Shown: piece after piece, positions 22,964-61,715 of the stretch
Position numbering within the stretch: position 1 is the stretch's first letter
Layout: each line of letters begins with the position of its first letter
Source of the DNA: a virus
Taxonomy: Duplodnaviria > Caudoviricetes
IMG/VR virus record: IMGVR_UViG_3300045391_004375
Coordinates: 1 to 64,000 of that record
Strand: one strand, 5' to 3'
DNA length: 64,000 bases
The notes under the pieces: generated by a model
What the model was told of the DNA's origin: nothing
Seen by the model: only the letters and a program-made list of their open reading frames with translations
Database searches by the model: none
Translations under genes and position numbers: made by a program

Positions 22964-23036
22964 GGGCTCGTAACTCAGCGGTCAGAGTCGCCGCCTCTAA
23001 AGCGCGCGGTCGCCGGTTCGAATCCGGCCGAGCCCT
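22964..23036 (+). tRNA. tRNA with CUA (amber) anticodon
   Basis: 7-bp acceptor GGGCTCG/CGAGCCC, D stem ACTC/GAGT, loop CTCTAAA (CTA 22997-22999), T arm GCCGG-TTCGAAT-CCGGC; bulged anticodon stem; no encoded CCA. Confidence 0.8.
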
Positions 23037-23128
23037 CGCGCCCCAGCCGGGGCCACGCCGAGAACTACACGGGTGTAACTACACCGGTGGAATTTCACGG
23101 CGGTAACTCCACGGAAGGAACTACCCGG

Positions 23129-41542: not shown

Positions 41543-41567
41543 CAAGCCAGTTGGCAGGAGGTAGTGT
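41539..41567 (+). promoter_or_regulatory. promoter with operator variant, upstream of RNA locus
   Basis: TTGACA-N17-TAGTGT; TGACAAGCCAGTTGGCA 41540-41556. Confidence 0.7.
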
Positions 41568-41966
41568 TTTCCTTGTTCGGCAGCGAGGCCCGCAGGGATC
41601 CGGCCAGAGTGCTGGGGAGCAGGCCGAACCGCAGGACGCAGAGCCCAGAGCAAGCCCAGCACCACCAGGACCCGGAACCACCACGCCGGCCACGGCCGAG
41701 CACATGAGCACGACTTGAGAATTCCACAGCTTCACCACGACGGGCATTGACTCGCTTCGCTGATTGACCGCGTCTCGGCGATATGCGACCCGCCCGTCCG
41801 CCCCGTCCGGGATCCGGCCCGGCATCCGTCCGATCGAGCGGACGGCGGGGTGCGCAACGGCCACGCCAAACCCTGCACCTTCTAGGGAAACAGTGGCAAG
41901 TGGGGCTTGACTTGTCGCCCTGCGCAGCAAGGAAGCAAGGCAACGGCACCAAAGGCCACGGTGTCG

Positions 41967-42112
41967 GTCCAGCGATTCAGTGATCGACCTGCAAGCGACG
42001 ACTAGTCGGGTGTGAGTCCCGACCTCCCAGGGCTACCTCAGCACGATCGAGGGTTAACGGGCGCGTGGACGAGAGTTGAGGTGTAAGCCGGGTGCGACTC
42101 CCGGGCTGGATG
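41967..42112 (+). ncRNA. tRNA-like element TL1 (acceptor + T arm closing 114-nt interior)
   Basis: GTCCAGC/GCTGGAT 7 bp; CCGGG-TGCGACT-CCCGG; internal second T-arm-like hairpin GTCGGG-TGTGAGT-CCCGAC. Confidence 0.5.
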
Positions 42113-42300
42113 CTCCAGGGGCCCCGAGTATGGGGGGCCCACAGCACAACGGATGGAAGTACCAGGGCGACGACCGCGACGGCGGCCGAAAGCAAGGAGC
42201 GCCTAGTCCAAGACCACCGGCCGGCCGGCGGTAGGTCAGGGGCGAAATCCGACAGCAGCGGTGCAGCCGTCGGGCGTGGGCTTCCATCCGGCACCACCAT

Positions 42301-42384
42301 TCCTCGATCGCGCTGTGCAGCGCGTGGCAGGGGCCTCGGACTCCGCGCGGAGCGAGGCTCGCGGTTCGATTCCGCATCGGGGAG
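42301..42384 (+). ncRNA. tRNA-like element TL2, no anticodon loop
   Basis: 8-bp acceptor TCCTCGAT/ATCGGGGA, GCGG-TTCGATT-CCGC; anticodon arm replaced by long stem with 4-nt loop. Confidence 0.55.
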
Positions 42385-42428
42385 CGTCAATAGGCACGGC
42401 GGTTCGCACCCGCACGGCCGGCAAGACA

Positions 42429-42525
42429 CCCTGATCACAGAGGTCTGTGCGGGATCCACGACTGGCGGAGGCGTCCGTTTCAGAATCGGAGACCGGCGTC
42501 GGGAGGTTCGAGTCCTCCCCAGGGA
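42429..42525 (+). tRNA. aberrant tRNA-Leu(CAG)-like element TL3
   Basis: T arm GGGAGG-TTCGAGT-CCTCCC, loop TTCAGAA, variable hairpin GAC/GTC; extra hairpin between short acceptor and D arm. Confidence 0.45.
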
Positions 42526-42526
42526 G

Positions 42527-43410
42527 CGAAGCGCGGCGGGCCTGACTGGGCCTCCGGCCTGCTGCGCTGCACGTCCCGCCAGGGACGGTCCCCCTTCCCG
42601 ATGGGTTTCGGGGGAGCCGACTTCGATGTCGGACGGGGCACGACGACGACGGACCTTGGTCCGGGGCAACCTGGACGCCTGGTGAAGTCGATCTGACGGC
42701 AGGGAACAGACCGCTGACGGCAGGGAACAGACCGCTACCTTTTCCGGTTTCGCGAGGTAAATCGGACGAGGGGCACTCCTCCCCCCGTGAGAACAGGGAG
42801 GTCGGCCACGGACACGGTGGTGGGGATCCCGATCCCCGGGATGTGTAGCGCGCACGGACCATATTGGGGGAACCGGATGGCGATAACCGCAGCGTACGGG
42901 CGGTAGGTCGCGCGGGAGCGAGACCCGATCCGGTTGCGGAGGGGGCGGCGAATACACCGACCGGCAGGCATACCGGGAGGTGCGCGGCAATGCCACCGCG
43001 TCCTGGCCTATCGGGTCGGGAGCAAGCCGCCCTGCTCGAAGACTTGTCCGTAGGCTCTCCACAGCAGAGCGAACGGAACGCCCTCCCCACGGCGTAGGTG
43101 GGGCCCGACCCCGGGGCAGATGGGGCAGGTCGGCAGCCGGCCGGGACCTGCGGAAGCGTCGCTGTGCACGGTGGCGTGGAAGGCATACGCGGGCAAGGCT
43201 CGGGACTCGCTGCGGGAATTCCCGGGCCACGGCACAACGAGGCGCCTACGAACCGCCGGGTGCGGCGGGAGTCGCAGAATGGCGTACCGCAGGGCACACA
43301 AAGCGTGAGGCCCTGACCGGGCCGAGCTGGCGGCGGGCGACTGCCCACCAGCAGGAGCCGCGCCGGGCGGCAGCTTCAAGCAGCGTGTACCTGTGCGCAC
43401 CCGGCACCCG
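42527..43410 (+). ncRNA. large ornate structured RNA candidate (GOLLD/ROOL-like size and context)
   Basis: no credible ORF; more than 15 hairpins found by eye, GNRA loops, long-range helices; bounded by tRNA-like elements. Confidence 0.55.
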
Positions 43411-43530
43411 GGGTTGGTAGCTCAACCGGTAGGGCGCAGGACTTGGCCGGCTGCATAGCAAAGGGTCCTGGCAAGGGTCGCGGAATCCTAGGTTCCGCAT
43501 GCCATGGAGGTTCGAGGCCTCCCCACCCCA
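43411..43530 (+). tRNA. aberrant tRNA-like element TL4 (Pro UGG-like, expanded anticodon loop and variable arm)
   Basis: GGGTTGG-TA-GCTC-AACCGGTA-GGGC, stem CAGGA/TCCTG with 24-nt loop, T arm GGAGG-TTCGAGG-CCTCC. Confidence 0.5.
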
Positions 43531-43541
43531 CAAACCCCCTG

Positions 43542-43617
43542 GGGGAGTAGCCCAACGGTAGAGGCTGGTTCGGACATGCCAAGTCCGTAGTACCCGGTTC
43601 GAGTCCGGGTCTCCCCA
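43542..43617 (+). tRNA. tRNA-Gly(GCC)-like, atypical D/anticodon junction (TL5)
   Basis: CGGAC-ATGCCAA-GTCCG, T arm CCCGG-TTCGAGT-CCGGG, acceptor GGGGAG/CTCCCC. Confidence 0.55.
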
Positions 43618-46573: not shown

Positions 46574-46836
46574 TGGGGGTGTACCGGACCGGCCGGAAGT
46601 GCCTGAACCACATCTACCTCCAGGCCGGCCCCGAGCCGGACCACGACAACGATGTGGAGGTGGCCGTCGCGCTCGGCGCCCCCGACGTGGCCAACGAAAT
46701 GGGTCCCCGCATCGTCGAAGCCCTCAACTTTGTGGAACGGTTCAAGCGGGAGCACTGCACCTGCGACGGCGCGTGGTGGGGTGGCGACCACGTGGGCACC
46801 TGCCCGGTCGCCCAGGCGGGAATTGGCCGGCGATGA
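46570..46836 (+). CDS. hypothetical protein
   Basis: coupled between terS and terL. Confidence 0.6.
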   Translation: MMGVYRTGRKCLNHIYLQAGPEPDHDNDVEVAVALGAPDVANEMGPRIVEALNFVERFKREHCTCDGAWWGGDHVGTCPVAQAGIGRR

Positions 46837-48548
46837 CCATCCTGGCCGAGCGGCCGACCGCCCCGGCCGACCGCGACACCGAGCTGACCATCTCGATCGA
46901 CCCGTACGACCCGCGCACCAACGCGGAGAACTTCGACCTCCACGGCTGGCTGGCCACCTTCGACCCGCGCCTACTCGCCCACGCCGAAGGCCGACGCACC
47001 CTCACCGAACTTGACCCGCTTCTGTTCGCGTACGTCTACCTGCGCAAACACCTCAAAGACGCGCTGGGCCTGGTCACCTTCGCCGACGCCCACTTCCTGT
47101 GGGTGCGGGCCGCCCGCCGGCTCATCGGCCCCAGCCGGGGGCCGCGCGAAGACCGGCGGGCGTTCGTCGCGCCCCGGTCCTGCGGCAAAAGCACTTGGTG
47201 GTACCTGGTGGTACCGCTGTGGGCGGGGGCGCACAAGCACACCAAGTTCGCGGCGGCGTTCGCCGACTCCGGCTCGCAGGCCGAGCTGCACCTGGCCACG
47301 TTCAAGGCCGAGCAGGCCGACAATGCGCTGCTGCGCTCCGACTTCACCGACTTCTGCAACCCGGCCCGCCGGCACACCGGCCGGACCGTCGCCGACAACC
47401 AGAACATGCTGCACACCCGGTCCGGCTTCACGTTCGTGGCGAAAGGCATCGACTCGACGTCGCTGGGCATGAAGATGGGCGCCGACCGGCCTGACCTGAT
47501 CATCCTGGACGACGTCGAGCCGCCGGAGGCCACCTACTCGCTGTACCAGCGCAGCCGGCGGCTGTCCACCATCCAAAACGCCATCCTGCCGTTGAACGAG
47601 GCCGCCCGGGTGATCGTGGTCGGCACCGTCACCATGCCCGGCTCGATCATCCACGAACTGGTGCGCCACGCGAAAAGCGAAGGCACCGAAGAGTGGGTGA
47701 CGGACGAGCGGTTCAAAACCCACCACACCCAGCCGATCATCCAGCGGGAAGACGGCTCCGAGCGCAGCGTGTGGCCGGAGAAGTGGCCGATGGAGTACCT
47801 CGACCAGATCCGGCACACCGACAGCTTCAAGCTCAACTACGCCAACGACCCGCGCGGCATCAAGGGCGCCTACTGGTCGGCCTCCGACATCGTCGTACTG
47901 CCGGCCGTCCCGGTGATCACCAGGCAGTTCCTGTTCGTCGACCCGCCGGCCAAGGAGAAGAAGACCTCCGACGAGTGCGGCCTGGCCGTGGTCGGCCTGG
48001 CCCCCGGCACCCAGCAGGACCCGACCGACCTGATCCGCAACCTGATGGGCCTGTCCGCCGGCCAGGCCGGGTTCAGCACCGCCCAGGAACTGCTCGGGGA
48101 GATGCTGCTCGCCGGGGAGAACCTGGGCCAGCAGGCCCGCCTGGACCGGGCGGTGGTGCTCGACGCGTGGGGGGTCCGGGCCACCGGCCACCACCTGAAG
48201 AAGATCATTCTTCAGGTGCTGGGTCGCTGGCCGGGCGTCCAGGCCGTGGTGGTGGAGAACAACCAGGGCGGCGACCTGTGGCTTGACGTGCTGGAAGGTC
48301 TGCCGGTCCGGCTGATCACCTACCCGGCCGTCCAGTCGAAGGAGGTCCGCTTCGCCCGCGCGCTGACCTTCTACCAGAACCGGCGGGTCTGCCACGCCAA
48401 AGACATGCCGCTGCTGGTCGACCAGCTCACGGGCTTCCCCAAGGCGCCCCTCGACGACATCGCCGACGCCGTGGTGGCCGGTGTGCTGCGGCTGCTGTGG
48501 ACCGACAAACGCAAGACCCACAAAAACAAGACCCTCACCCCGCGCTGA
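46833..48548 (+). CDS. terL: terminase large subunit
   Basis: APRSCGKST Walker A, IILDDVE Walker B, FVDP..DECG nuclease, LDDIADA. Confidence 0.92.
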   Translation: MTILAERPTAPADRDTELTISIDPYDPRTNAENFDLHGWLATFDPRLLAHAEGRRTLTELDPLLFAYVYLRKHLKDALGLVTFADAHFLWVRAARRLIGPSRGPREDRRAFVAPRSCGKSTWWYLVVPLWAGAHKHTKFAAAFADSGSQAELHLATFKAEQADNALLRSDFTDFCNPARRHTGRTVADNQNMLHTRSGFTFVAKGIDSTSLGMKMGADRPDLIILDDVEPPEATYSLYQRSRRLSTIQNAILPLNEAARVIVVGTVTMPGSIIHELVRHAKSEGTEEWVTDERFKTHHTQPIIQREDGSERSVWPEKWPMEYLDQIRHTDSFKLNYANDPRGIKGAYWSASDIVVLPAVPVITRQFLFVDPPAKEKKTSDECGLAVVGLAPGTQQDPTDLIRNLMGLSAGQAGFSTAQELLGEMLLAGENLGQQARLDRAVVLDAWGVRATGHHLKKIILQVLGRWPGVQAVVVENNQGGDLWLDVLEGLPVRLITYPAVQSKEVRFARALTFYQNRRVCHAKDMPLLVDQLTGFPKAPLDDIADAVVAGVLRLLWTDKRKTHKNKTLTPR

Positions 48549-49146: not shown

Positions 49147-51180
49147 ATGGCGAAGACGGCACAGAAGAAGCGGCCGTCGCGCAGCGCGCTCGCGCCGAAG
49201 CTGCCGGAGATCCTGCGGCAGGCCCTGCACCCCGACGACGAGCGCCAGGACTCGGTCGACGACATCCTGCACGGATTGAAAGTGCTCGACGCCCAACGGG
49301 AGATCGCCACCGAGGCGGACGTCTTCTACGACGGCGAACTGGGCATGGTGTGGGCCTCGGAGAAGGTGCGCCAGCTCCTGGAACGCCAGGGCGTCGAAGA
49401 CATCAAGGACTTCAACTACGCCGCCGTCCCGGTCGACGTGATCGCCAACCGCCTGGAGATCAACAGTGTGGTTCCGGCGCCCGCCGAAGAGAACGAGGAC
49501 GGCCACCAGGTCGAAGAGGACGCCGCCGTCAAGGCGGCCAAGAAGGCCATCGCCGCCCTGCGCAAAGACAACCAGCTCGACGACGAAGAGGAGCACCTGC
49601 ACCTCAGCGCGAGCAAGCACGGCCAGGCGTTCCTGCTGGTGTGGCCGGTCACCGACGACGTCGGCAACGTGGTCAGCGTCGACATGCGCATGCACGACGC
49701 CCACACCATGGCCATGGTGTACGACCCGGAAGACCTGCTGGTCGCCCAGTACGCAATCAAGGCCTGGGACATCGAGATCGGCGGCCAGACCTGCGTCCGG
49801 GTGAACCTGTACTACTTCGGCGAAGGCAAGCACGGCCGGATCGAACGGTGGGTCACCGAAGGTGGCTCCAACCCGCAGTCGAAGGACGCGTGGCGCCCCC
49901 TCGTGGACGCCGTCGAGCACATCGACGAGTACGACTCGTCGGGCGAGTCCGAGGCCCCCGACCTGGCCGCCGACGAGTTTACCGACGACGAGGACGAGTC
50001 CGGCGACGACATCCCCAACCCGTGGGGCCAGATCGTCTTCCACTTCCGCAACAACCGGCCGATCGGCATCCCCGAGCACCGGCGGGCCTACGGCCCCCAG
50101 CAGATGATCAACAAGTTGATCTTCGCGCACGCCGGCACGATCGACTACCAGAGCTTCCCGCAGCGCTACCAGCTGGTCGACCCGATGGCCGACGACCCGC
50201 TGCAGAACATGGCCGATCCGATGCACCCCGACGACGATGACGACGACCCGGAGACCGAGGCCGGCGGGTCCGGCCTGCGCGCCGACCCGGCCACCGTGTG
50301 GCGGCTGTACGGCAAGAGCGTGGGTGAGTTCCAGGCGGCCGACCCTCAGGTGTTCCTCGGCCCGCTCGACCGCTACGTCAAGTCGATGGCCGAACTGACC
50401 GACACCCCGCAGCACGCGTTCTCGAAGGCCTCGGCCGACATGCCGTCAGGCGACGCGGTCCGGGAGCTGAACGGGCCGATGAACACCAAGGTGCTCAACC
50501 GGCGCCGCCGCTACGGTGCCACCTGGCAGGACAGCTACGAGAAGGCCCTGGAAATGATGGGCATCGAAGGTATCACCGTCGATGTCCGGTGGGCGCCCCT
50601 GGAAGTGGTCGCCGACGCCCAGGGCTGGGAAGTCGTCCAACTCAAGATCAACGCTGGGGTGCCGGTCGAGCAGGCCCTGGAAGAGACCGGCTACTCCTCC
50701 GACATGGTGGAAGGCTGGCTGAAAGACGCCACCGGCGCCGACCTGGGCCGGCGGGTCGCCCTGCTCAACCAGATCGGCACCGCTGTGCAGACCATCGGCG
50801 CCGGTATCGCGCTCGGCGCGGTCTCCAAAGAGCAGGCGCAGGCGGTCATCACCGGCATACTGAAGCTGACCATGGAAGGGGCCGACGTCGAGCTGCCGGA
50901 GAACCCGGACGACTTCGTTGACCCGCAGGCCCAGCAGGCTGCCATGCTGCAGGCCCAGCAGGAGCATCAGCAGACCCTCCAGCAGGCCCAGCACCAGCAC
51001 GCCACCGCCACCCAGCAGGCCGGCCACGAATTCCAGGCCCAGCAGTCCGAGGTGTCGTTCCAGCGCATGCAGGAGCAGATGCGTCAGGGCCGGCCGATCG
51101 GCGGCGGCCCACCGGGTGGTCAGCCACGCAACGGTCGTCCGGCCCGGCCCGGCCAGCCCCCCCGAGGTGGTCAGCAGTGA
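49147..51180 (+). CDS. portal protein (SPP1 gp6-like)
   Basis: follows terL; FYDGE..FNYAAVPVDVIANRL..HFRNNRPIG..PQRY. Confidence 0.85.
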   Translation: MAKTAQKKRPSRSALAPKLPEILRQALHPDDERQDSVDDILHGLKVLDAQREIATEADVFYDGELGMVWASEKVRQLLERQGVEDIKDFNYAAVPVDVIANRLEINSVVPAPAEENEDGHQVEEDAAVKAAKKAIAALRKDNQLDDEEEHLHLSASKHGQAFLLVWPVTDDVGNVVSVDMRMHDAHTMAMVYDPEDLLVAQYAIKAWDIEIGGQTCVRVNLYYFGEGKHGRIERWVTEGGSNPQSKDAWRPLVDAVEHIDEYDSSGESEAPDLAADEFTDDEDESGDDIPNPWGQIVFHFRNNRPIGIPEHRRAYGPQQMINKLIFAHAGTIDYQSFPQRYQLVDPMADDPLQNMADPMHPDDDDDDPETEAGGSGLRADPATVWRLYGKSVGEFQAADPQVFLGPLDRYVKSMAELTDTPQHAFSKASADMPSGDAVRELNGPMNTKVLNRRRRYGATWQDSYEKALEMMGIEGITVDVRWAPLEVVADAQGWEVVQLKINAGVPVEQALEETGYSSDMVEGWLKDATGADLGRRVALLNQIGTAVQTIGAGIALGAVSKEQAQAVITGILKLTMEGADVELPENPDDFVDPQAQQAAMLQAQQEHQQTLQQAQHQHATATQQAGHEFQAQQSEVSFQRMQEQMRQGRPIGGGPPGGQPRNGRPARPGQPPRGGQQ

Positions 51181-51785
51181 GCTGGGAAGAGGCGCTGCAC
51201 CCGCGCGACGAGTACGGCCGGTTCCGGCTGCGCGGCCTGACCGGCCGGTGGCGGCCCCACGCCAACGGCGAGACGTTCACCGACGCCCGGGGGCGGACCT
51301 TCGACTACGAAACCGGGTACATGCTCGACACCAACGCCATGCGGGGCGGCTGGATGCGGGTCGGTGACCTCCCGGCCGGCGTAGCCGATCAGGCCCCGGG
51401 TGGTCGACGCCGCCCCGGGGACCTGTCGAGCGGGGGTGCCTGGCACAAGCCGGGCGAGTACGGGCCGGGGCATGTGCCGATCTTGCGTACCGAGTACGGC
51501 ACGCCGCTGTCGTCGCTGCAGCCGGAGGACACCAAGACGTTGAAGTTCCGGCGGTCCACCGGCACCTCCTTCCGTCACGAGGTGTTGGCCGAGATCCTGA
51601 ACCGACGTACCCACGACCGCCTTGTGATCACTAACCCGAGCGAGGCGGCCCCGGAGGTGCGGGGATCGCACCTGTCCAGCCCGCTGAACCCGGTGGGTCG
51701 GCGGCGAGCCGCCAAGCAACGTTCGAAGCGTAGGAACAGTACGACCTGGATCCAGCGGCTGAATAACCAGATCGAGGGACGGTAG
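51177..51785 (+). CDS. HPRD-motif head-module protein
   Basis: N-terminal WEEALHPRDEYGRF. Confidence 0.65.
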   Translation: MSWEEALHPRDEYGRFRLRGLTGRWRPHANGETFTDARGRTFDYETGYMLDTNAMRGGWMRVGDLPAGVADQAPGGRRRPGDLSSGGAWHKPGEYGPGHVPILRTEYGTPLSSLQPEDTKTLKFRRSTGTSFRHEVLAEILNRRTHDRLVITNPSEAAPEVRGSHLSSPLNPVGRRRAAKQRSKRRNSTTWIQRLNNQIEGR

Positions 51786-51787
51786 CC

Positions 51788-54700
51788 ATGGGGAAGCGCA
51801 GCCTGCGGGCCCTGCACTGGGTGGAGGCCAAGCACCCCCGCGACGACCGGGGCCGCTTCTCCCACAAGGGTGGCCAGAAGTGGGCCCGGAAGGTCGCCGA
51901 CGAGCTGGGCGCCCGGTTCGGCGATATCCACATGGGCGCGGCCCCCGGCCGTGAGCCGCAGGGCAAGCTGCAGTCGTCCAAGGCCGGCGGGTTCCTGCTG
52001 AACACGAAGGCGGCATCGGCGGCCGGCCGGGACGCCGGGATGCGCGCGGAAGGCCACCGGCTGGTCACCGAACTGGGCGGGATCCGCAAGGAGCGGGGCA
52101 CCGGCGGCGGCAGCCCCGAGGGAATGCGCGAAGCCCTGAACAACAGCTCGGGCAGCTCCCTGAAGGCGACGGTCGCCCAGCTGCGCACCCACGTGCAGCA
52201 AGAAGGCGGCTGGCTGAAGGAGGAGCGGGCGGCGTCCGCCGGCACGATCTCGGTGGGCGACCTGAAGAAGGGCGACCACGCGAAGCTGGTCGGCCAGGAC
52301 GCCTACGGCAAGCAGATCTCCCTGAACGGCTACGTGCAGGGCGTCGGTGACGTCAACGTCCGCAAGGGCCGCAACCGCACCCCGATGAAGGCTGTTCAGG
52401 TGGCCGAGACGCCGTCGGGGGGCGGCGGCTGGCGGGGCACGGTGTACGTCAAGCCGGACCACATGGCCGAGAAGACCACGCCGAAAGCCGACGTGGCGCG
52501 CCTGGAGGGCCGCCGGCCGGGCGGAACGGTCCAGGTGGTCAACCCGGACGGCAAGGGCGGCTTCAAGGTCGAGGGGCGGATCACTCGGGAAGAGGCCGCC
52601 CGGCAGATGGGACTTGACAAGCCGGTTGGCGGCCGGAAGCCTGGAGGGGTGACCACCACCACGCCGAAGGCTCGCGAGCGGCGCGCCGAAGAACTGCGCA
52701 TCAGCAATGACCCGAAGGACAACGGCGCCAAGATCAAGGCCATTCAGGACGGCACGCTGGCCAGCGCCAGCCTGTACCGCAAGGTGGCCGCCGGCCCGAG
52801 CGGGCAGCGCTCCAACGTCGCCATGGGCCACATCCGGCACACCCCCGACAACCCGTCGGGTGAGTTCCAGATCAGCGACAGCGATGGGCGGCTGGTCGGC
52901 TGGGCGTCGCACACGGTCCGCAATGGCGAGCCGGTATTCTCCGTGCACTCCGAGAACTACGACGGGGAGCACCGCCTGGAAGGCTGGGCTGGGGAGCTGT
53001 CCACGGCCGCCGACGTGCTCATCAACGGTGAACACGCGGCCCGGGGCCGGCACGATTCCGAGCGCATCTCGAAGGGTTCCTTCGAGTCGTACGCCGGCAA
53101 GAACATGTCGGTTGACCAGCTGGAGCGTCACGGCAACCGGCAGGAACTAGCCAAGGTCAACAAGGAGCTGGAGAACCCGGACCTTGCTCCCACCATCCGC
53201 GCCAGCCTGGAGCGGAAGCGGACCCAGCTGGAGGCCGACTTCGCCGAGATGATCGGTGCGTCGAAGACCCCCACGCCCAAGGCCCCGGAAGCGCCCCAGG
53301 ATCGGCGCATGGCCGAAGTTACCCGCATCGAGAACGCGCGAGCCAACTTCGGCAAGGGCGAGGCCTCCAAGGCCACCGAGGTGGGCCGCAAGCCGGGCGG
53401 CGGTTACCAGTACAGCGACTACTCCAAGGCCCACCACGACATGGGCAACCTGACCGTCGCCGAGGCTGGATTGCCCGACAAGGGCGCGGTGCACTCCCAG
53501 TACCAGGGGATGCTGCGCAGCATCAACGAACTGAAGCGGCAGGGCCCGGCCCGGGTCGGCTCGAAAGACCAGTACTACCGGCCGATGACCCGCAAGCTCG
53601 AAGAGGCCGCCCAGTACGTGCACGAACACGAAGGCAACCCCGACACGGTGGCCAAGCTGCGGGCCCTCGCCGACATCCACCGCCCCCACACCGACACCGC
53701 CCCCAAGCTGGTCAGCGGCGCCGACATCCGCTCGCAGCGGGCCGCCATGGCCTCCAGCCTCGGCGTCGACATGAACGACCCCAACCGGTGGACCCGCAGC
53801 CTCGGCGACGTCCGGCAGGAAGTCATCAGCAAGGCGATTCGGGACATTCCGCAGTACTACACGCACAAAGACCTGATGGACGCCCAGCAGCGGCTCAAAG
53901 ACACCTCGATCCACGACACGGAGGCGATGGACGCCGCCGCGCTGAACCTGCACCGCATCGGCGACGAGATCCGGGCTAAGCAGGACGACCTGAAGGCCGT
54001 CGGCACCCGGTTCCGGACCGCCCTGGAGGCGGCCGGCGGCCTGGCCGACCAGGAGGCCGCCGTCAAGGCCGACCTGCGCCGGATCAAGAAGGAGAACGGC
54101 ATCCCCGGCGATGCGGCCATCAAGAAGTTGCCGAACGGTGAGCGGCAGGCCGCCGAGGCCGCCCTGTTCGACATCCAGAAGGCCACCCGGGCGCGGGTGG
54201 CCCGGGAGAACAACCTCAAGCAGGCCAAGATCGGCCGGGAAGTGCTGGCCAAGGGCGGCATGCACCCGGACAACGCCGCCGAGCTGGAAAAGCGGATCAA
54301 GAACGTTGAGGGGGGCGCGACCGCCGAGCAGGTGGCCCGGGACGAGCGCGAACGGGACCTGGCCCTGGCCGTGTGGCGACACGCCAAAGACAACTCCGGC
54401 ACGACCGGCGAATACCCGGCTGACCACCTGAAAGGTCTCGACGCCGAGGAGCAGATGGCGGTCACCGTGATGGCCCGCAACGTCGGCCTGAACGCCGCCG
54501 ACGAGCTGGCCCAGGATCTGCGCGGCCAGAAGGGCCTCAAGGCGCCGAAGGCGAACACCGACTACACCGGGTTCAGCGAGTCGCAGACCCGGGCCCTGCG
54601 CTCGATCGAGAATGACCCGCTCCGGCACGCCCAGGTGCGGGAAAACTTCGGCCAGGCCAACGCCGCGCGGGCCGCCGACGAGGCGAAGCGGGCCAAGGAG

Positions 54701-55678
54701 CTGGCCACGGTGTCGGCGGTGGCATTGCCCGAACCGTCGGTCAGCCACGCCGACCAGGAGGCCGCCCTGGAGGCTCTCGCCAAGCAGGTCGACCCGAACC
54801 GGTTCAAGGGCGGCAAGATCTTCAACAACCACGTCATGGAGGGCGCCTACTCCGGATCCATCCAGGACGCCTACGGTAAGCGGGTCCTCAACTATGACGG
54901 CCGCAAGGGCACCTGGACCACCAGCAACGGCGGCCAGCTGGCCCCGAACCAGGTACATGCCTACATCACCGAGTACAACCGGCACGACCAGTTCGACCGG
55001 AACCCGAACTACCTGAAGTCCATCGTGGACAAGCAGGTGGCCCCCGAGTTCCCGGCCCAGACCGGCGGCGGCACCCGGGGTGGTGGGAGCGTGGTCGCCG
55101 ACCTGCGGAAGATCTCCAACGGTTCCGTCGGTAGCGTCGCCAACGACCTGGAGTCGGGCGACGTCACCCCGGCCGAGGCGGCCGACCGGTTGGACCGGAT
55201 CGGCCGGCAGCGGGGCCTGGACGGACGCACCCGTGGTCAGCTCAGCGCGGCGGCCCAGCGGCTGCGCGCCCAGAGTCGGGAAGACCTGGGTCTGAACCGG
55301 CCGGCCCCGGCCGGCGCGCGCATCGAGACGACCCGGACCGGCAACATCAAGAAGCCGCCCAGGACGCCCAGCTCGAAGCCGGGTAGCCGCACCGAGCAGG
55401 TGTTGCGGGACCTGCACGCCGAGCTGGCCAAGCACCCGGTCAGCGAGCAGAAGATCGCGTTCTCCGACGCCACGATCCGCGAGGTGGTTGGCAGGCTCGC
55501 CGACGAGGTGGCCCAGGGCAAGATCTCCGAGGATGAGGCCCGCAACCAGCTTGACCGGCTGCTGGGTCGCGCGTTCAACTACGCCAAGAGCGAACAGTCC
55601 GGTACCCACGGGGCCCTCAAGAAGGCCACCGACGCCCTCGCGGCGGCGGCGGGACGGCGGCCGGGGGGAAAAGCGTAG
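51788..55678 (+). CDS. large (1296 aa) HPRD-motif head-module protein, putative ejection/polyvalent protein
   Basis: N-terminal WVEAKHPRDDRGRF; between portal and MuF; strong coding bias. Confidence 0.7.
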   Translation: MGKRSLRALHWVEAKHPRDDRGRFSHKGGQKWARKVADELGARFGDIHMGAAPGREPQGKLQSSKAGGFLLNTKAASAAGRDAGMRAEGHRLVTELGGIRKERGTGGGSPEGMREALNNSSGSSLKATVAQLRTHVQQEGGWLKEERAASAGTISVGDLKKGDHAKLVGQDAYGKQISLNGYVQGVGDVNVRKGRNRTPMKAVQVAETPSGGGGWRGTVYVKPDHMAEKTTPKADVARLEGRRPGGTVQVVNPDGKGGFKVEGRITREEAARQMGLDKPVGGRKPGGVTTTTPKARERRAEELRISNDPKDNGAKIKAIQDGTLASASLYRKVAAGPSGQRSNVAMGHIRHTPDNPSGEFQISDSDGRLVGWASHTVRNGEPVFSVHSENYDGEHRLEGWAGELSTAADVLINGEHAARGRHDSERISKGSFESYAGKNMSVDQLERHGNRQELAKVNKELENPDLAPTIRASLERKRTQLEADFAEMIGASKTPTPKAPEAPQDRRMAEVTRIENARANFGKGEASKATEVGRKPGGGYQYSDYSKAHHDMGNLTVAEAGLPDKGAVHSQYQGMLRSINELKRQGPARVGSKDQYYRPMTRKLEEAAQYVHEHEGNPDTVAKLRALADIHRPHTDTAPKLVSGADIRSQRAAMASSLGVDMNDPNRWTRSLGDVRQEVISKAIRDIPQYYTHKDLMDAQQRLKDTSIHDTEAMDAAALNLHRIGDEIRAKQDDLKAVGTRFRTALEAAGGLADQEAAVKADLRRIKKENGIPGDAAIKKLPNGERQAAEAALFDIQKATRARVARENNLKQAKIGREVLAKGGMHPDNAAELEKRIKNVEGGATAEQVARDERERDLALAVWRHAKDNSGTTGEYPADHLKGLDAEEQMAVTVMARNVGLNAADELAQDLRGQKGLKAPKANTDYTGFSESQTRALRSIENDPLRHAQVRENFGQANAARAADEAKRAKELATVSAVALPEPSVSHADQEAALEALAKQVDPNRFKGGKIFNNHVMEGAYSGSIQDAYGKRVLNYDGRKGTWTTSNGGQLAPNQVHAYITEYNRHDQFDRNPNYLKSIVDKQVAPEFPAQTGGGTRGGGSVVADLRKISNGSVGSVANDLESGDVTPAEAADRLDRIGRQRGLDGRTRGQLSAAAQRLRAQSREDLGLNRPAPAGARIETTRTGNIKKPPRTPSSKPGSRTEQVLRDLHAELAKHPVSEQKIAFSDATIREVVGRLADEVAQGKISEDEARNQLDRLLGRAFNYAKSEQSGTHGALKKATDALAAAAGRRPGGKA

Positions 55679-55697
55679 GCCCGACGGAGAGCGGGCC
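55666..55697 (+). other. putative -1 programmed frameshift site
   Basis: G GGA AAA heptamer 55666-55672 in correct phase two codons before TAG; hairpin GGCCCG/CGGGCC 5 nt downstream; -1 frame open to 57747. Confidence 0.65.
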
Positions 55698-55796
55698 CAC
55701 GGAGGAGCCGAAGATCATTCGCGGCTCGTTCACCGGCGGCATCAGCGCGAAGACCGGCAAGAAGATCCAGCCCAAGCCGGTCCGACCCATCCGACC

Positions 55797-55819
55797 GCTT
55801 GACAACTCAGTTGTCAAGC
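55797..55819. promoter_or_regulatory. perfect 23-bp palindromic operator containing TTGACA
   Basis: GCTTGACAACTCAGTTGTCAAGC. Confidence 0.75.
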
Positions 55820-55833
55820 CGGAGGATGGAGGC

Positions 55834-57747
55834 ATGCCAGCCACCATGCCAGCGGCCCGCCTGTCGAAGCTCGACACCCCCGCGCTGATCGAGCAGTACG
55901 ACCAGGCGATCTCCAGCCACAAGGGCCGGTACACCGACACCGCGCCCCGGCAGCAGCGCATCAACAAGATCGTCGACCTGTTGACGGAGCGGGCCGACGC
56001 CGACGACCCGGACGCCCTGGCCTGGTTCGAGAAGGAGCAGAAGACCCCCAGCGGGTCAACCGCCCGCAAGGCCGCTCCCGGAGAGCCCACGCTGGGCGTC
56101 ACCACCTCGGCCCGGGGCCGCACCACCACGGTGACCCTGCCCGACGGCACCACCGAGCAGCGCACCAGCAAGACCCGCGAATACACGCACGCCGTGGTGG
56201 TCACCGCCGACAACCACAACGACGCCACCGACCTCCAGGTGGACAACGCCCGCCGGCAGAAGTTCGTCGATGCCCTCCAGCAGTGGATCAACGAAGGTTC
56301 GGACACCTCCAAGCTGAAGGGGTACCCGACCGGTTCCCTCTCCCACGCGGAGCGGCAGGCCGGCGTCAAGCCGACCGAGTACTACCTGCCCGGCTTCGAG
56401 CCCACCCGGGTGCAGGGGCGGACCGGCGACACCTGGGAGAACACGGAGTTCAGCCTCCCGAACTTCAAGGACACCCGCAAGCTGAGCTGGGCGGACGGCC
56501 GGACCGAATGGGAGGAGTACGGCCCCGAGCACGTACTGAAGCGCAACCAGGAAACCATCGACAAGCAGGCCAAGAAGGCTGACCAGCTCCTTGCCGGCCC
56601 CCGCTACAGCTACGGCGTGTGGCGCTGGTCCAGTTCTCCAACGGCCGCCCAGGCCGCCGCAAGCCAGTTCGGCAACTACCGCAACCGCTCCACCCAGGTG
56701 ATCGGGGTCGGGGGGGTCGCCGAGGCGAAGAAGGCGACCAAGCCGGTGCTGAGCGCCGAGGAGAAGGCCGCCCAGGCCGAGGTGCGCAAGCTCGCCGCCA
56801 AGGCTGCCGAAAAGGCCCGCAACGAGGCCAGTAACGCCGAATTCGTTCAGCGCAAGCTCAAGAGTGTGGCCGAGCGGGTCACCAGTGGCGTGGACACCCC
56901 CGACACTGCGCTGAGCACCGTCAATGACCGTGGTCTGAGCGTGCTCGCCAAAGAGCTGGGCGTGAAGACCCCGCGCGGCTACCGGACGAACCGGGCGATC
57001 AAGGACGCTTACGAGCGGTCGATCGTCGAGGCGATCATGGCCCGCGCCAACGCGCGCAAGAGCGCCGCCCGGCTCGCCGACGCCGAAGCCGCCGCCCAGA
57101 AGGCCGCCGACCGCCTTGAAGGTGCAGCAGCCCTCAACTCGGCCCCCGCCAAGGTCCGCGACGGCAAACTGTCCCTCCCCGGCTGGGGCGACGGCGAGCG
57201 GGCCGACGCCGCCGATGCCCTGGAGCACTACCGGGACGTGGGCTTCGCCGACCTCAACCGGGACCTGCGGGCCGGCGTACCCGGCTCCGACAAGGGTCGG
57301 CAGACCACCGCCACCGTCGACAAGGTGATGGCCGCCTCTCCGCTGCCCCAACCGGTCACCGTCCACCGGGGCGTCGAAGACGCCGGCCACTTCAAGGTCG
57401 GCCAGGTCATCACCGACCCCACCTACAGCTCCACCAGCGTCGACTTCGCCGTAGCGAAAGGCTTCGCCGGCAAGGGCGGGGCGGTCCTGCGCATGCAGGT
57501 CCCCGCCGGGGTCGGCGCGGTCAACCTGTCCGACGTGCCCGGCGCCCGCCCGGACGAACGGGAAGGGGAACTGCTCCTGCAGCGCGGCCTGCGCTACCGC
57601 GTGGTCAGCGAATCGACCGTCAACGGGGTGCGGGTGTTCGACGTCGTGATCGAACCCGGCCCCATCACGCCGGTCCGGGCGGGCACCGGGCGTCGCCCCG
57701 GCGGCAGCCGACCGGCCGGCCCGCCGAAGTTCCGCCCCCGTGGATGA
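55834..57747 (+). CDS. protein with C-terminal VIP2/Alt-like ADP-ribosyltransferase domain
   Basis: LEHYRDVGFADLNRDLR..VTVHRG..YSSTS..EREGELLLQRG (R-S-E triad); frame open upstream to slippery site. Confidence 0.85.
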   Translation: MPATMPAARLSKLDTPALIEQYDQAISSHKGRYTDTAPRQQRINKIVDLLTERADADDPDALAWFEKEQKTPSGSTARKAAPGEPTLGVTTSARGRTTTVTLPDGTTEQRTSKTREYTHAVVVTADNHNDATDLQVDNARRQKFVDALQQWINEGSDTSKLKGYPTGSLSHAERQAGVKPTEYYLPGFEPTRVQGRTGDTWENTEFSLPNFKDTRKLSWADGRTEWEEYGPEHVLKRNQETIDKQAKKADQLLAGPRYSYGVWRWSSSPTAAQAAASQFGNYRNRSTQVIGVGGVAEAKKATKPVLSAEEKAAQAEVRKLAAKAAEKARNEASNAEFVQRKLKSVAERVTSGVDTPDTALSTVNDRGLSVLAKELGVKTPRGYRTNRAIKDAYERSIVEAIMARANARKSAARLADAEAAAQKAADRLEGAAALNSAPAKVRDGKLSLPGWGDGERADAADALEHYRDVGFADLNRDLRAGVPGSDKGRQTTATVDKVMAASPLPQPVTVHRGVEDAGHFKVGQVITDPTYSSTSVDFAVAKGFAGKGGAVLRMQVPAGVGAVNLSDVPGARPDEREGELLLQRGLRYRVVSESTVNGVRVFDVVIEPGPITPVRAGTGRRPGGSRPAGPPKFRPRG

Positions 57748-58696
57748 TCTTCAGCTGCTCGCGCTGGAAGCGCAGGTCCGGGACACCGTCGTCACGGACC
57801 TGCGCGGTTTCCTTGACGAGTTGCTGCGCATCGGCACGGCCATCTATGTAACCACGGCCGGCTCCACCCACCACAAGCTGCCCGAACACGCCCAGGACAC
57901 CCTGCGCGGCCTGCTCGTCGAGCAGCTCGACCGGATGCGCCGCTACCCCTACCGGGAAGTCCGCCAGGCCCTCCAGCACGGCGCCCAGCAGGCCCTGGCG
58001 ACCGGCTCCTACGACACCGGACTGATCGGCCCGGTGGTCAGCCGGATCTCCGGCACGCTGCCCCTGGACATCCGGGCCGCGCTGCCCGCGCTCACCGCCG
58101 GCATCCGCGACGACCTGCACGCCGCCGCCCACCTGGCCCGTAGCGGCCCCCTCGACCGGTACGGCGACCTCATGTCGGTGATCGCCACCGCCCGACGGGC
58201 CGTCAACCGGGCCGAACAGACCACCACCTTCGTGATCCACCGGGCCCACGCCGAAGGTGTCCAGCGGGCCATCGACCGGGCGGCGGCCGGCGGCATCGAG
58301 GTGGCCACACTGTGGCTGGCCGAACGGGACGCCTGCGCGGCCTGCCTCGGCTACGCCGGGGCCCTCGCCGTGCCCGGCGAACCGTTCCTGCCGGTGTTGT
58401 CCGTCCAGGACCCGTCGGCCACCGTCTACGGGCCGGTGTGGGGGCCGCCGCTGCATCCGCACTGCCGGTGCCGCACCGAACCATGGTTCGGTGGCCTGGA
58501 CATCACCCCGGTGGACCTGCCGCACGCCCTGCGACGCGAAGCCCAGCGTTCGATCGCCGCCGGCACCGCCATGGGGAGCCGACCAGCCCGCCTGCGGGCC
58601 GCTGGCCGGCTCGTTCAGGCGGCCGGTCTGCTCATCCCGAAGACGGTGGTCAAGCGGGCCCAGCGGGCCGTCCAGGCCGGCACGTTCGAGCGTTAG
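57740..58696 (+). CDS. MuF / SPP1 gp7-like head morphogenesis protein
   Basis: LWLAERDACAAC..PPLHPHCRC. Confidence 0.8.
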   Translation: MDDLQLLALEAQVRDTVVTDLRGFLDELLRIGTAIYVTTAGSTHHKLPEHAQDTLRGLLVEQLDRMRRYPYREVRQALQHGAQQALATGSYDTGLIGPVVSRISGTLPLDIRAALPALTAGIRDDLHAAAHLARSGPLDRYGDLMSVIATARRAVNRAEQTTTFVIHRAHAEGVQRAIDRAAAGGIEVATLWLAERDACAACLGYAGALAVPGEPFLPVLSVQDPSATVYGPVWGPPLHPHCRCRTEPWFGGLDITPVDLPHALRREAQRSIAAGTAMGSRPARLRAAGRLVQAAGLLIPKTVVKRAQRAVQAGTFER

Positions 58697-59247: not shown

Positions 59248-60402
59248 ATGACCACGGCACTGTTAGCGACCGTTCAGCCCGGCTTGCGTGCCGTGCTCCA
59301 CACTGCCACACCACTTGGCCACACCGCCGCCGGCCGCCCCGTCTGGGCGCTGCAGGGCGGCCGGGGATCGACCATCGACTTCGTGGTGGACGACCGGGAC
59401 GACGACACCGACCCCTTCGGGGACGACGAAGACGACGACGAAGACGACGACGAGGACGAATACGACGACGAGGACGAGTCGGACGAAGAGGACGACGAGG
59501 ACGAGTCCGAGGAAGACGACGAGGAAGACGACCGCCAGCAGGCCCGCCGCAAGCCGGCCCGCAAGGACGGCAAGGGCAAAGACGGCAAGGACAAGGGCGA
59601 CGACACCGACGAGGCCGACGCCGACTGGACCCCGCCGACCCGGGAGCAGTTCACCCGCCTCGAAGAAGCGGTCAAGCGCAACAACCATGAGCTGCGGCAG
59701 CGGCGCTTCATCGGCAAGGCGATGAAAGACCTGGGCATCACCTCCCCCGAGTCCTTCTCCGAGTTCCTGATCACCCGGGGCATCAACCCGGACACCGGCG
59801 AACTGATCGACGGCGAAGACGCCGAAGTCGACGAGAACGGTAAAGTCAAGCGGCACAACGCGCAGACCATCAAGCGGGCCGAAGACCGCGCCCGCACGCA
59901 GGTGGTCAACCAGTACCGGCCGGCCCTCGCCCTCCAGGCGGCCGAGTCGGAGCTGCGCGCGGCCGGCTGGTCGGGCCGGGACATGGGTCGGGCCCTGCGG
60001 CTGGTCGACGTCGACAAGATCGATGTCGAGTTCGACGGCGAGACCGGGGAGCCCATCCTGTACGGCGTGGAGGACCAGGTGAAGGAGCTGAAGACCGAGT
60101 TCCCCGAGTGGTTCCGCAGCACCCGGGAGGAGCCGGAGGACCGTCCGGCCCGGGGTCGGCGCACCACCGGACGTCGCCGCGCCGACGACGAGGACGACGA
60201 CCGGGCCCTGGAGCGCAGCGTCAGCCGGCGCACCCGCACCTCGACCAGCTCGGCCGGCACCACCAACGGCGCCACCAACGGGCGGCGGGCGGCCCGCTCC
60301 GGCGGCGCCCGCCAGGTCGACGGCGGTGGCACCGGCCGACGGGCCACCCGGCCGCAGACCTGGCTGGACAAGGTGGACAAGCAGATGATGCGGGGCGTGT
60401 AA
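59248..60402 (+). CDS. capsid scaffolding protein
   Basis: acidic tract, coiled coil, position before MCP; AGAAAGG RBS. Confidence 0.75.
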   Translation: MTTALLATVQPGLRAVLHTATPLGHTAAGRPVWALQGGRGSTIDFVVDDRDDDTDPFGDDEDDDEDDDEDEYDDEDESDEEDDEDESEEDDEEDDRQQARRKPARKDGKGKDGKDKGDDTDEADADWTPPTREQFTRLEEAVKRNNHELRQRRFIGKAMKDLGITSPESFSEFLITRGINPDTGELIDGEDAEVDENGKVKRHNAQTIKRAEDRARTQVVNQYRPALALQAAESELRAAGWSGRDMGRALRLVDVDKIDVEFDGETGEPILYGVEDQVKELKTEFPEWFRSTREEPEDRPARGRRTTGRRRADDEDDDRALERSVSRRTRTSTSSAGTTNGATNGRRAARSGGARQVDGGGTGRRATRPQTWLDKVDKQMMRGV

Positions 60403-60524
60403 GCTCCGCCCGGGAAGTCTCAAAGGCACGCACGCGGGCCCCTTCAAGCCGGCCACCCCGGCGAGGGGGCCCGCGTGTCACTCAACCGACCGGATGTACC
60501 ACGCGCGCCGAATAGGCAGGGTGC

Positions 60525-60554
60525 TTGGTCAACTGGCGTTTTGCCTGCTATCCT
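60525..60554 (+). promoter_or_regulatory. putative promoter for capsid gene
   Basis: TTGGTC-N18-TATCCT with TGn extension, after hairpin 60431-60475. Confidence 0.45.
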
Positions 60555-60656
60555 CCCGACCAGGTACGCCTTACAGTCCGTGACGGGCCGGCGTCTTCGC
60601 TCGCGACGAGCAATTGGTAAAGACTTTTCCAGTTGTGCGCGAGCGAGAGGAACCAC

Positions 60657-61715
60657 ATGATGACGCGCACGTTCGCGATCGACTGGGACATTCACCCAGA
60701 CCGCGACCCCGGCCAGCTCATCGGCTTCACCTCCAACGGGACGCCGGTTTGGCAGCTCGCCGGTGGTGCCCCGATCACCATCACCTCCTGGATCCCGATC
60801 GAGTACAGCTCGGACGTCGTCCAGCGGGTTCGGACCGAGTCCGTGATCGAGCGGCAGGCCCGCCGGGTCGCGATGGGCTCCAAGACCAAGTCCATCCCGC
60901 GTTCGGCCGGCGTGACCGTCACCGCCGGCACGACCTACACCGACGACGCCAGCACCAACGACGAGGTTGTGCTCACCGCGCGGCGCTTCATCGCCCGCGT
61001 ACAGATCGACGAGGACGACCTGGCCGACGCCAGCACCCGTATGGACGTCATCGGCACGAAGGCCCTCGACTGGGCCATCAGCTACGCCGACGTGTTCGAC
61101 AACGCGTGCCTGGCTGTCACCGGCACCGAGAACGGCACCACGGTGCCCTTCACCTCGGCGTACAAGCGGCTGCGGACCACCAACGCGAACACCGGCTACA
61201 CCGCCGACGACAACTACACCACGTGGGACGACGACCTCATCTCGGTGCCGACCACGCCGGCCGGCACGTCGCTGTACGAGAAGCTGTCGTTCATCTTCAA
61301 GAAGGTGGAGACCAGCAAGTACTGGTCGCAGCCGGACATGATCGTCATCGCGGCGCCCGGCTGGCGTGACGCGCTGCGCATGTGCGTGGACGCCCAGGGC
61401 CGCCCGATCTTCACCTCCGGCGGGGGCCTGCCCGGCAACGGCACCCCGGACACCCTGTTCCAGACCCCGATCTCGTGGTCGCGTGGCTGCAAGACCTCGG
61501 CCACCAACACGGGCTCCCCGACTGGCAACGACCTGCTGTTCTTCGTGAACAAGCGGTACCTGGCCCGGGGCGACCGGTCCGGCCCGGAGACGCTGACCGA
61601 CAACGCGCGGGCGCAGGACGACTCCGACAACTACGCGATCAAGTTCCGTGCCCGTCGGGCCTTCCAGCTCACCCACGAGAACGCGGCGGCCGTGCTGGAG
61701 CGCATCACCGACTAA
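60657..61715 (+). CDS. major capsid protein (HK97 fold)
   Basis: WIPIEYSSDVVQRV..ESVIE..DAQGRPIF..LFQTPI; GAGGA RBS; after scaffold. Confidence 0.85.
   Translation: MMTRTFAIDWDIHPDRDPGQLIGFTSNGTPVWQLAGGAPITITSWIPIEYSSDVVQRVRTESVIERQARRVAMGSKTKSIPRSAGVTVTAGTTYTDDASTNDEVVLTARRFIARVQIDEDDLADASTRMDVIGTKALDWAISYADVFDNACLAVTGTENGTTVPFTSAYKRLRTTNANTGYTADDNYTTWDDDLISVPTTPAGTSLYEKLSFIFKKVETSKYWSQPDMIVIAAPGWRDALRMCVDAQGRPIFTSGGGLPGNGTPDTLFQTPISWSRGCKTSATNTGSPTGNDLLFFVNKRYLARGDRSGPETLTDNARAQDDSDNYAIKFRARRAFQLTHENAAAVLERITD

Follow-up and report, generated by a model that had tools for sequence, protein, structure and literature searches.

What happens to the scaffolding and major capsid proteins of an actinobacterial phage when both begin with the same short leader and the head module holds no recognisable protease? 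This question is raised by the first 64 kb (hereafter, the window) of the IMG/VR record IMGVR_UViG_3300045391_004375. The record is 80,815 bp long, has direct terminal repeats and 69% G+C, and represents an uncultured, actinobacterial phage whose known relatives have Streptomyces and Mycobacteriales as hosts. The scaffold and capsid leaders of the window both end in Gly-Gly (Table 1). An earlier note, made from the DNA sequence alone, suggested that they mimic a ubiquitin tail and are removed by a JAB/JAMM metallopeptidase encoded in the same window or by a host peptidase. The analysis described here reveals a conserved, modular N-terminal tag with a hairpin core. The reading preferred here, which is possible though short of probable, is that this tag is a removable leader, cut after Gly-Gly by a JAB of the Mec/HvJAMM1 type that the host supplies, with an additional phage copy in the clade of the window phage.

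The Leader Shared by the Scaffold and Capsid Proteins

The two 16-residue peptides on which the earlier note was based were both found, as residues 23–38 of the scaffold and residues 22–37 of the capsid protein. The capsid gene starts with an ATG at 60657, with the ribosome-binding site GAGAGGAA upstream. A hidden Markov model (HMM) of the leader was built from 119 capsid leaders of homologues, with no scaffold sequences included. When run over the six frames of the 80.8-kb genome, it matches the capsid leader with an E-value of 1.5e-9 and the scaffold N-terminus with an E-value of 2e-4, while the third-best match has an E-value of only 0.5. The leader is indeed common to the two proteins, and the same pair of matches is repeated in about 15 related IMG/VR loci.

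The core motif, h-h-G-[FYH]-[TR]-x-x-G-x-P-[IV]-[YW]-x-x-A-G-[GAS], is present in nearly all of the 120 capsid homologues listed. Across 14 scaffold homologues, G29, P31, and G37 are invariant. At the leader boundary, the penultimate residue (P2) is Gly in 118 of 118 capsid leaders and the residue before it (P3) is Ala in 86 of the 118; for the last residue (P1), the counts are Gly 66, Ala 11, and Ser 7. In the AlphaFold2 (AF2) model, the capsid leader forms strands at residues 20–24 and 30–33 with a predicted local distance difference test score (pLDDT) of ~80, followed by a disordered stretch. The scaffold leader gives a weaker hairpin at residues 24–32 (pLDDT ~65). The leader holds no beta-grasp domain (~65–95 residues): it has 37–38 residues, is modelled as a two-strand hairpin and gives no ThiS match.

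At the DNA level, the two leaders of the window are identical at 30 of 63 nucleotides, so their conservation is at the protein level. Scaffold and capsid leaders from the same phage are more alike than pairs taken across phages (permutation p ~1e-4). In one relative (L014), an identical run of 32 nucleotides between the two leaders reveals gene conversion.

The Leader as a Module

Both proteins carry the leader in the cluster BN Streptomyces phages Rooney, Dryad, and phiRKBJ001, and in a phage from a Mycobacteriales metagenome-assembled genome (MAG). Nine isolates, Dryad among them, have it on the capsid protein. Leaderless capsid proteins that are 33–64% identical to that of the window occur in Zukovirus, Microbacterium phages, two satellites, and Streptomyces prophages. 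They begin with M-A-x6-W-[IL]-P, that is, at the residue that follows Gly-Gly, and in two variants the Trp is preceded by 8 or 10 residues. The scaffolds of these same phages begin just ahead of the acidic tract. Across clades, the scaffold and the capsid protein have or lack the leader together.

In a large IMG/VR clade, the hairpin is found on the scaffold alone, in ~36 loci, and ~18 sister loci are devoid of it. Two relatives (L091 and L083) have capsid proteins that are 97% identical and scaffolds that differ by one clean indel of 31 residues, which corresponds to the hairpin. A further family of scaffold-like proteins from Streptomyces prophages (L131–L134, L136, and L137) carries the same hairpin at the extreme N-terminus. 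In this family the hairpin ends in Gly-Ala, followed by Ser or Asp, which extends both where the tag occurs and which residues can stand at its boundary. In a sample of 401 Streptomyces genomes, the prophage capsids that belong to the family of the window capsid all turned out to be leaderless, so this sample adds no independent leader-bearing lineages.

The Phage JAB and Its Distribution

The open reading frame (ORF) that the earlier note had read as a JAMM-motif peptidase matches PF14464 with 50.8 bits (cut-off 25), with both the E..CG and the H-S-H-x7-S-x2-D motif intact. Five phage JABs all share E23, H81, H83, S91, and D94, and the zinc site of the window JAB is intact. The desampylase model NF041370 (HvJAMM1) gives the window JAB 58.6 bits against an equivalog cut-off of 130, which makes it a relative and not an equivalog. 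The nearest solved structures are 2KCQ, 2KKS, and 5LDA. The phage JABs barely match the JAB models of PADLOC.

Seven of the eleven complete or near-complete genomes with a capsid leader encode a PF14464 JAB (G000–G004, G007, and Dryad). In G000–G003, the four compared for gene position, the gene is syntenic, ~20 kb upstream of the capsid gene. JAB is absent from six leaderless isolates and from the regions around seven leaderless prophages. JAB genes were found only in phages with a capsid leader, where they represent two separate lineages. To go from phages with a JAB to the type of their capsid, the Streptomyces host JAB and the clade JAB were used as tblastn queries; in 50,697 phage records, Dryad was the sole actinophage match. 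With the window JAB as a query, a word-based protein search, an IMG/VR scan and tblastn against phages returned no relatives. The JAB of Dryad, gp95, is ~50% identical to the host enzyme and for this reason looks like an independent capture.

The DNA beyond the JAB gene deserves a separate remark. On its 3′ side, within 41543–43617, lie about 1.9 kb in which none of the frames shows a coding signal, and then two tRNA-like Rfam matches, an unusually long one at 43411–43530 and a tRNA-Gly (GCC) at 43541–43617.

The Search for Other Candidate Cutting Enzymes

As the earlier note had stated, no prohead protease is recognisable: Pfam and PHROGs reveal none among the ORFs of the head module. In the whole 80.8-kb genome, there is no match to Peptidase_S78, ClpP, S49, or Prp; the T4-type S77 family was not searched. 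The ORFs that adjoin the JAB gene match no family. A BLAST comparison of head modules showed that the head genes shared with Rooney and KimJongPhill are only those for the terminase, portal, MuF, scaffold, and capsid proteins. The comparison of leader-bearing with leaderless head modules yielded no extra head gene common to the leader-bearing groups. Among 14 control genomes, Prp (PF04327) is matched only in Bacillus, Thermotoga, and Lactococcus, and the actinobacterium Corynebacterium is devoid of it. The literature and databases offered no proteomic or structural data on the removal of the leader in virions of any relative.

The Host JAB and the Tail of CysO

The earlier note had named a leader common in phages and hosts devoid of JAB as a finding that would refute its proposal. 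This is not what was seen, because the hosts do have the enzyme: a conserved JAB is encoded in 30 of 31 Streptomyces genomes and in the Mycobacteriales MAG. It adjoins cysO and cysM in two of the three loci inspected. Host CysO ends in D-G-D-x-V-T-I-L-P-A-V-A-G-G, where a turn leads into a hydrophobic strand and a closing A-G-G, as in the leader. The idea of ubiquitin-tail mimicry is retained in part: the Gly-Gly tail resembles the V-A-G-G of CysO, but the leader has no beta-grasp and the likeness reaches no significant profile score. The further suggestion that the leader is a handle for ubiquitin-like conjugation finds no support, since the leader is a hairpin without a beta-grasp and the 80.8-kb phage genome contains no match to ThiS-like or other beta-grasp carriers (PF02597) or to ThiF/E1 enzymes (PF00899).

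A search with the leader profile also covered 61 Streptomyces genomes plus one MAG of the Mycobacteriales. It retrieved only prophage scaffolds and capsids and one low-complexity tail. The latter belongs to a conserved LCP-like membrane protein (L135, L138, and L139; Streptomyces genomes G038, G057, and G083), which was considered as the mimicked host protein and rejected, its score of ~22 bits being probably due to composition. This protein carries I-I-G-Y-D-x-Y-G-Q-P-V-Y in a Gln/Pro/Tyr-rich cytoplasmic tail, and its C-terminal part is LCP-like by eye only.

Comparison with Known Systems

The scaffold gp46 and the capsid protein gp47 of the Staphylococcus phage 80alpha share N-terminal leaders that are removed by the host-encoded protease Prp (PMC5744158). 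These leaders comprise 13–14 residues, are cut between Phe and Ala, and copy the N-terminal extension of the host protein L27, and the cutting is not essential (PMC5744158). The window phage resembles 80alpha in having a separate scaffold and an HK97-fold capsid protein that bear the same short N-terminal motif, and in having no phage head protease. The motif itself is unrelated, being a hairpin of 16 residues within a 37-residue leader that ends in G-[GAS], and the hosts are Actinobacteria, which, judging by the Corynebacterium control, do not have Prp. In contrast to the L27 copy of 80alpha, no significant copy of the leader was found in any actinobacterial host protein searched. Furthermore, many relatives of the window phage bear the tag only on their scaffold, and its cutting is a prediction. 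Distant homologues of the window scaffold match PF06810, and gp46 belongs to the same family.

In phage T4, internal proteins carry a capsid targeting sequence that is removed by the prohead protease gp21. There too, a short N-terminal tag with a small conserved motif at its boundary is present on several head proteins. The T4 tag, however, is on cargo and is served by a dedicated phage protease of the head module, whereas in the window phage only the scaffold and the capsid protein are tagged and no such protease was found.

The JABs Mec, HvJAMM1, and PfJAMM1 cut after a C-terminal Gly-Gly, linear fusions included. We know of no capsid substrate of any JAB. The window JAB is similar to the enzymes that act on CysO and SAMP, namely Mec (Rv1334-type), HvJAMM1 and PfJAMM1 (PDB 5LDA; NF041370), in being small and stand-alone with an intact zinc site. 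It differs in that its proposed substrate has no beta-grasp, the phage has neither carrier nor E1, and its NF041370 score is below the equivalog level.

Weighing the Explanations

The tag is probably a removable leader, as in 80alpha. This interpretation is suggested by the invariant Gly at P2, by Gly, Ala, or Ser at P1, and by a boundary that coincides with the start of the leaderless homologues; the last is equally expected from simple N-terminal addition. We infer that the leader is cut, where it is cut and by which enzyme, and the sequence of events could be as follows. The scaffold and the capsid protein would each be made with a modular tag of ~37 residues built around a beta-hairpin. 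A cut after Gly-Gly would leave a capsid protein that begins with Ala38 (codon 38, nt 60768) and a scaffold that begins with Arg39. The cut would be made by the small Mec/HvJAMM1-type JAB of the actinobacterial host, which normally belongs to the CysO/CysM cysteine pathway, and the clade of the window phage would contribute a JAB copy of its own. By ending in x-A-G-G, the hairpin would mimic the C-terminus of CysO, the sulfur carrier of the host. JAB appears to be the best candidate for the cutter, given its restriction to phages with a capsid leader, the independent look of the Dryad copy and the host gene that adjoins cysO, and is as yet unproven; it would be host-encoded in most cases, with phage copies in two lineages. 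The broader claim, that a JAB of this type is the head-maturation peptidase of a wide group of actinobacteriophages and removes a CysO-tail-imitating hairpin from both proteins, we regard as doubtful.

A number of observations weigh against removal by JAB. Co-occurrence of leader and JAB, which the earlier note had listed as a check, holds in one direction: JAB is found only where the capsid has a leader, but the gene is missing from Rooney, phiRKBJ001, and two IMG/VR genomes (G005, 93% complete, and G006, complete) despite their capsid leaders, as well as from 20 IMG/VR records of the clade with leaderless capsids and a hairpin on the scaffold alone. A phage JAB is hence no general requirement. 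The association involves two independent lineages only, one of which was ascertained via this window. The phage JAB genes are far from the head genes, outside the head module; that of Dryad is among small early genes and is not shared by the sister phage Rooney. The substrate is also problematic, because the leader is a 37-residue hairpin without the beta-grasp body that such JABs normally grip, and the CysO tail does not match the leader profile significantly. P1 is Ala or Ser in ~20% of the capsid leaders and in the whole prophage scaffold family, and G007 combines a JAB with a Gly-Ala boundary on its capsid. The L091/L083 indel indicates that scaffolds can do without the hairpin. Within the scaffold-only clade, a comparison of six hairpin-bearing with three hairpin-less near-complete genomes gave no gene whose presence follows that of the hairpin. 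Since the core head genes are the only ones shared and no gene co-varies, a cutter common to all tagged phages must be host-encoded or a core head protein.

The hairpin might instead never be cut. It could be an accessory tag with which the scaffold docks and of which the capsid protein has received a copy in some clades, with Gly-Gly as no more than a hinge. During procapsid nucleation or cargo loading, it would bind a partner common to both proteins, for example the portal, the MuF-like protein, a host chaperone, or the capsid protein at its inner face. We consider this explanation rather unlikely, although much is in keeping with it: a hairpin that is structured in the AF2 models and strongly conserved, with two Gly and one Pro invariant, its occurrence in a large clade that has it only on the scaffold and in a further scaffold family from prophages, the concerted evolution of the scaffold and capsid copies (the permutation result and the L014 run), and the lack of a co-varying protease. 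In 80alpha, moreover, assembly requires the scaffold N-terminus regardless of cutting (PMC5744158). However, a tag that can be lost next to a 97% identical capsid implies that no core structural partner depends on it, an invariant P2 Gly followed by Gly, Ala, or Ser fits a protease pocket better than a hinge, and the confinement of JAB to phages with a capsid leader is left unexplained. That the resemblance of the two leaders is a functionless by-product of duplication or gene conversion between neighbouring genes is highly improbable. Gene conversion is visible in L014, but several scaffold families and hundreds of capsid homologues retain the motif in their protein sequence despite divergence of the DNA, and the two proteins have or lack the leader together across clades.

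Removal after G-[GAS] by a host protease other than JAB, either an actinobacterial counterpart of Prp or a peptidase of the double-glycine type, appears unlikely too. The phage JAB would then serve another purpose; for example, it might reverse a ubiquitin-like conjugation that the host uses in defence, or be a captured mec that boosts the cysteine supply. The degeneracy of G-[GAS] is the same as that at double-glycine leader sites, and many hairpin-bearing phages do without a JAB; the Dryad gene is among early genes and looks like a recent capture from the host. JABs of the Cap3 type undo conjugation in CBASS (PMC10449767). On the other hand, the phage JABs barely match the PADLOC models, no candidate enzyme was identified, and neither the phage nor the actinobacterial control genome has Prp. 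Nor did any host protein prove to carry a significant copy of the leader, unlike L27 in the case of Prp, and the leader is a Pro-containing hairpin, whereas double-glycine leaders form an amphipathic helix.

Implications

In many actinobacteriophages that have a separate scaffold, no head protease can be recognised, and the hairpin tag marks a large set of these phages. It extends over hundreds of metagenomic capsid homologues, isolates of Streptomyces cluster BN, prophages, and a Mycobacteriales phage. If JAB does cut the tag, a new enzyme family would enter capsid maturation, as the first maturation enzyme of the JAMM family. This would also be the second, independent and convergent case, next to 80alpha and Prp, of phages that borrow a housekeeping peptidase of the host, and likewise the second convergent case of phage leaders that copy the end of a host protein. 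An uncut tag, in turn, would represent a portable docking module of scaffolding proteins with a partner yet to be found. Rooney, which has no JAB, and Dryad, which has its own, share one Streptomyces laboratory host strain and so provide an experimental handle.

Genome Context and Head-Module Layout

Table 1. Positions of the leaders and of the other features of the window.
Feature	Position (nt)	Strand	Remarks
JAB/JAMM metallopeptidase, stand-alone, 145 residues	41105–41542	+	PF14464; HvJAMM1/Mec type; candidate leader peptidase, unproven
Large terminase	46599–48548		head module
Portal	49147–51180		head module
ORF, 202 residues	51177–51785		head module; no family match
ORF, 1296 residues	51788–55678		head module; no family match
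Protein of 637 residues	55834–57747		C-terminal ADP-ribosyltransferase domain (PF03496, 7e-10)
MuF-like protein	57740–58696		head module
Membrane ORF, 166 residues	58693–59193	−	one predicted membrane helix; good bias of G+C at third codon positions (GC3); no family match
Scaffolding protein, 384 residues	59248–60402	+	GC3 of ORF 0.91
Scaffold leader, 38 residues, ends Gly-Gly	59248–59361	+	hairpin core 59314–59361
Major capsid protein, 352 residues, HK97 fold	60657–61715	+	phrog_10 and AF2/Foldseek
Capsid leader, 37 residues, ends Gly-Gly	60657–60767	+	hairpin core 60720–60767

The scaffold consists of the N-terminal leader, a long acidic tract, a helical core, and a basic C-terminal tail with a final helix. 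In the AF2 model, the long helices span residues 132–238 and the C-terminal helix spans residues 372–382. BLASTP relates the protein to the scaffolds annotated in KimJongPhill (2e-9) and Rooney (0.003). Its distant homologues, those of Rooney, L043, and L061, reach 45–60 bits with PF06810 (cut-off 35), and close homologues remain below the cut-off with 23–24 bits. The window scaffold itself gives no Pfam match, so its tie to the PF06810 scaffolds is by BLASTP only. The capsid protein matches phrog_10 (7.7e-15) from residue 45 onwards and has 403 homologues, many of which match PF05065. Its AF2 model is similar to capsid structures of actinophages and HK97 (Foldseek, ~1e-13), and no solved structure is related to it in sequence.

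The membrane ORF lies between the MuF and scaffold genes on the opposite strand. The 637-residue protein with the ADP-ribosyltransferase domain is encoded directly upstream of the separate MuF-like gene, an arrangement reminiscent of a MuF-toxin fusion, as found in temperate phages, that has been split in two. The motif G-R-[RK]-P-G-G (window 52511–57705) occurs four times in the 1296-residue protein and once after the ADP-ribosyltransferase domain; one site, which is followed by [IV]-T-T-x-x-P-K-A, is kept in a relative (L003). These repeats were considered as extra cleavage sites and rejected: the motif is frequent in the wrong frames of this GC-rich DNA, only the one site is visibly conserved in a relative, and there is no score against the leader profile. 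The 202- and 1296-residue ORFs, which are consecutive, both have H-P-R-D-x-x-G-R-F within their first 25 residues (nt 51198 and 51833), and this may be a common targeting or docking motif of packaged proteins. Outside the head module, ARAGORN identified a tRNA with the amber-reading anticodon CUA at 22964–23037.

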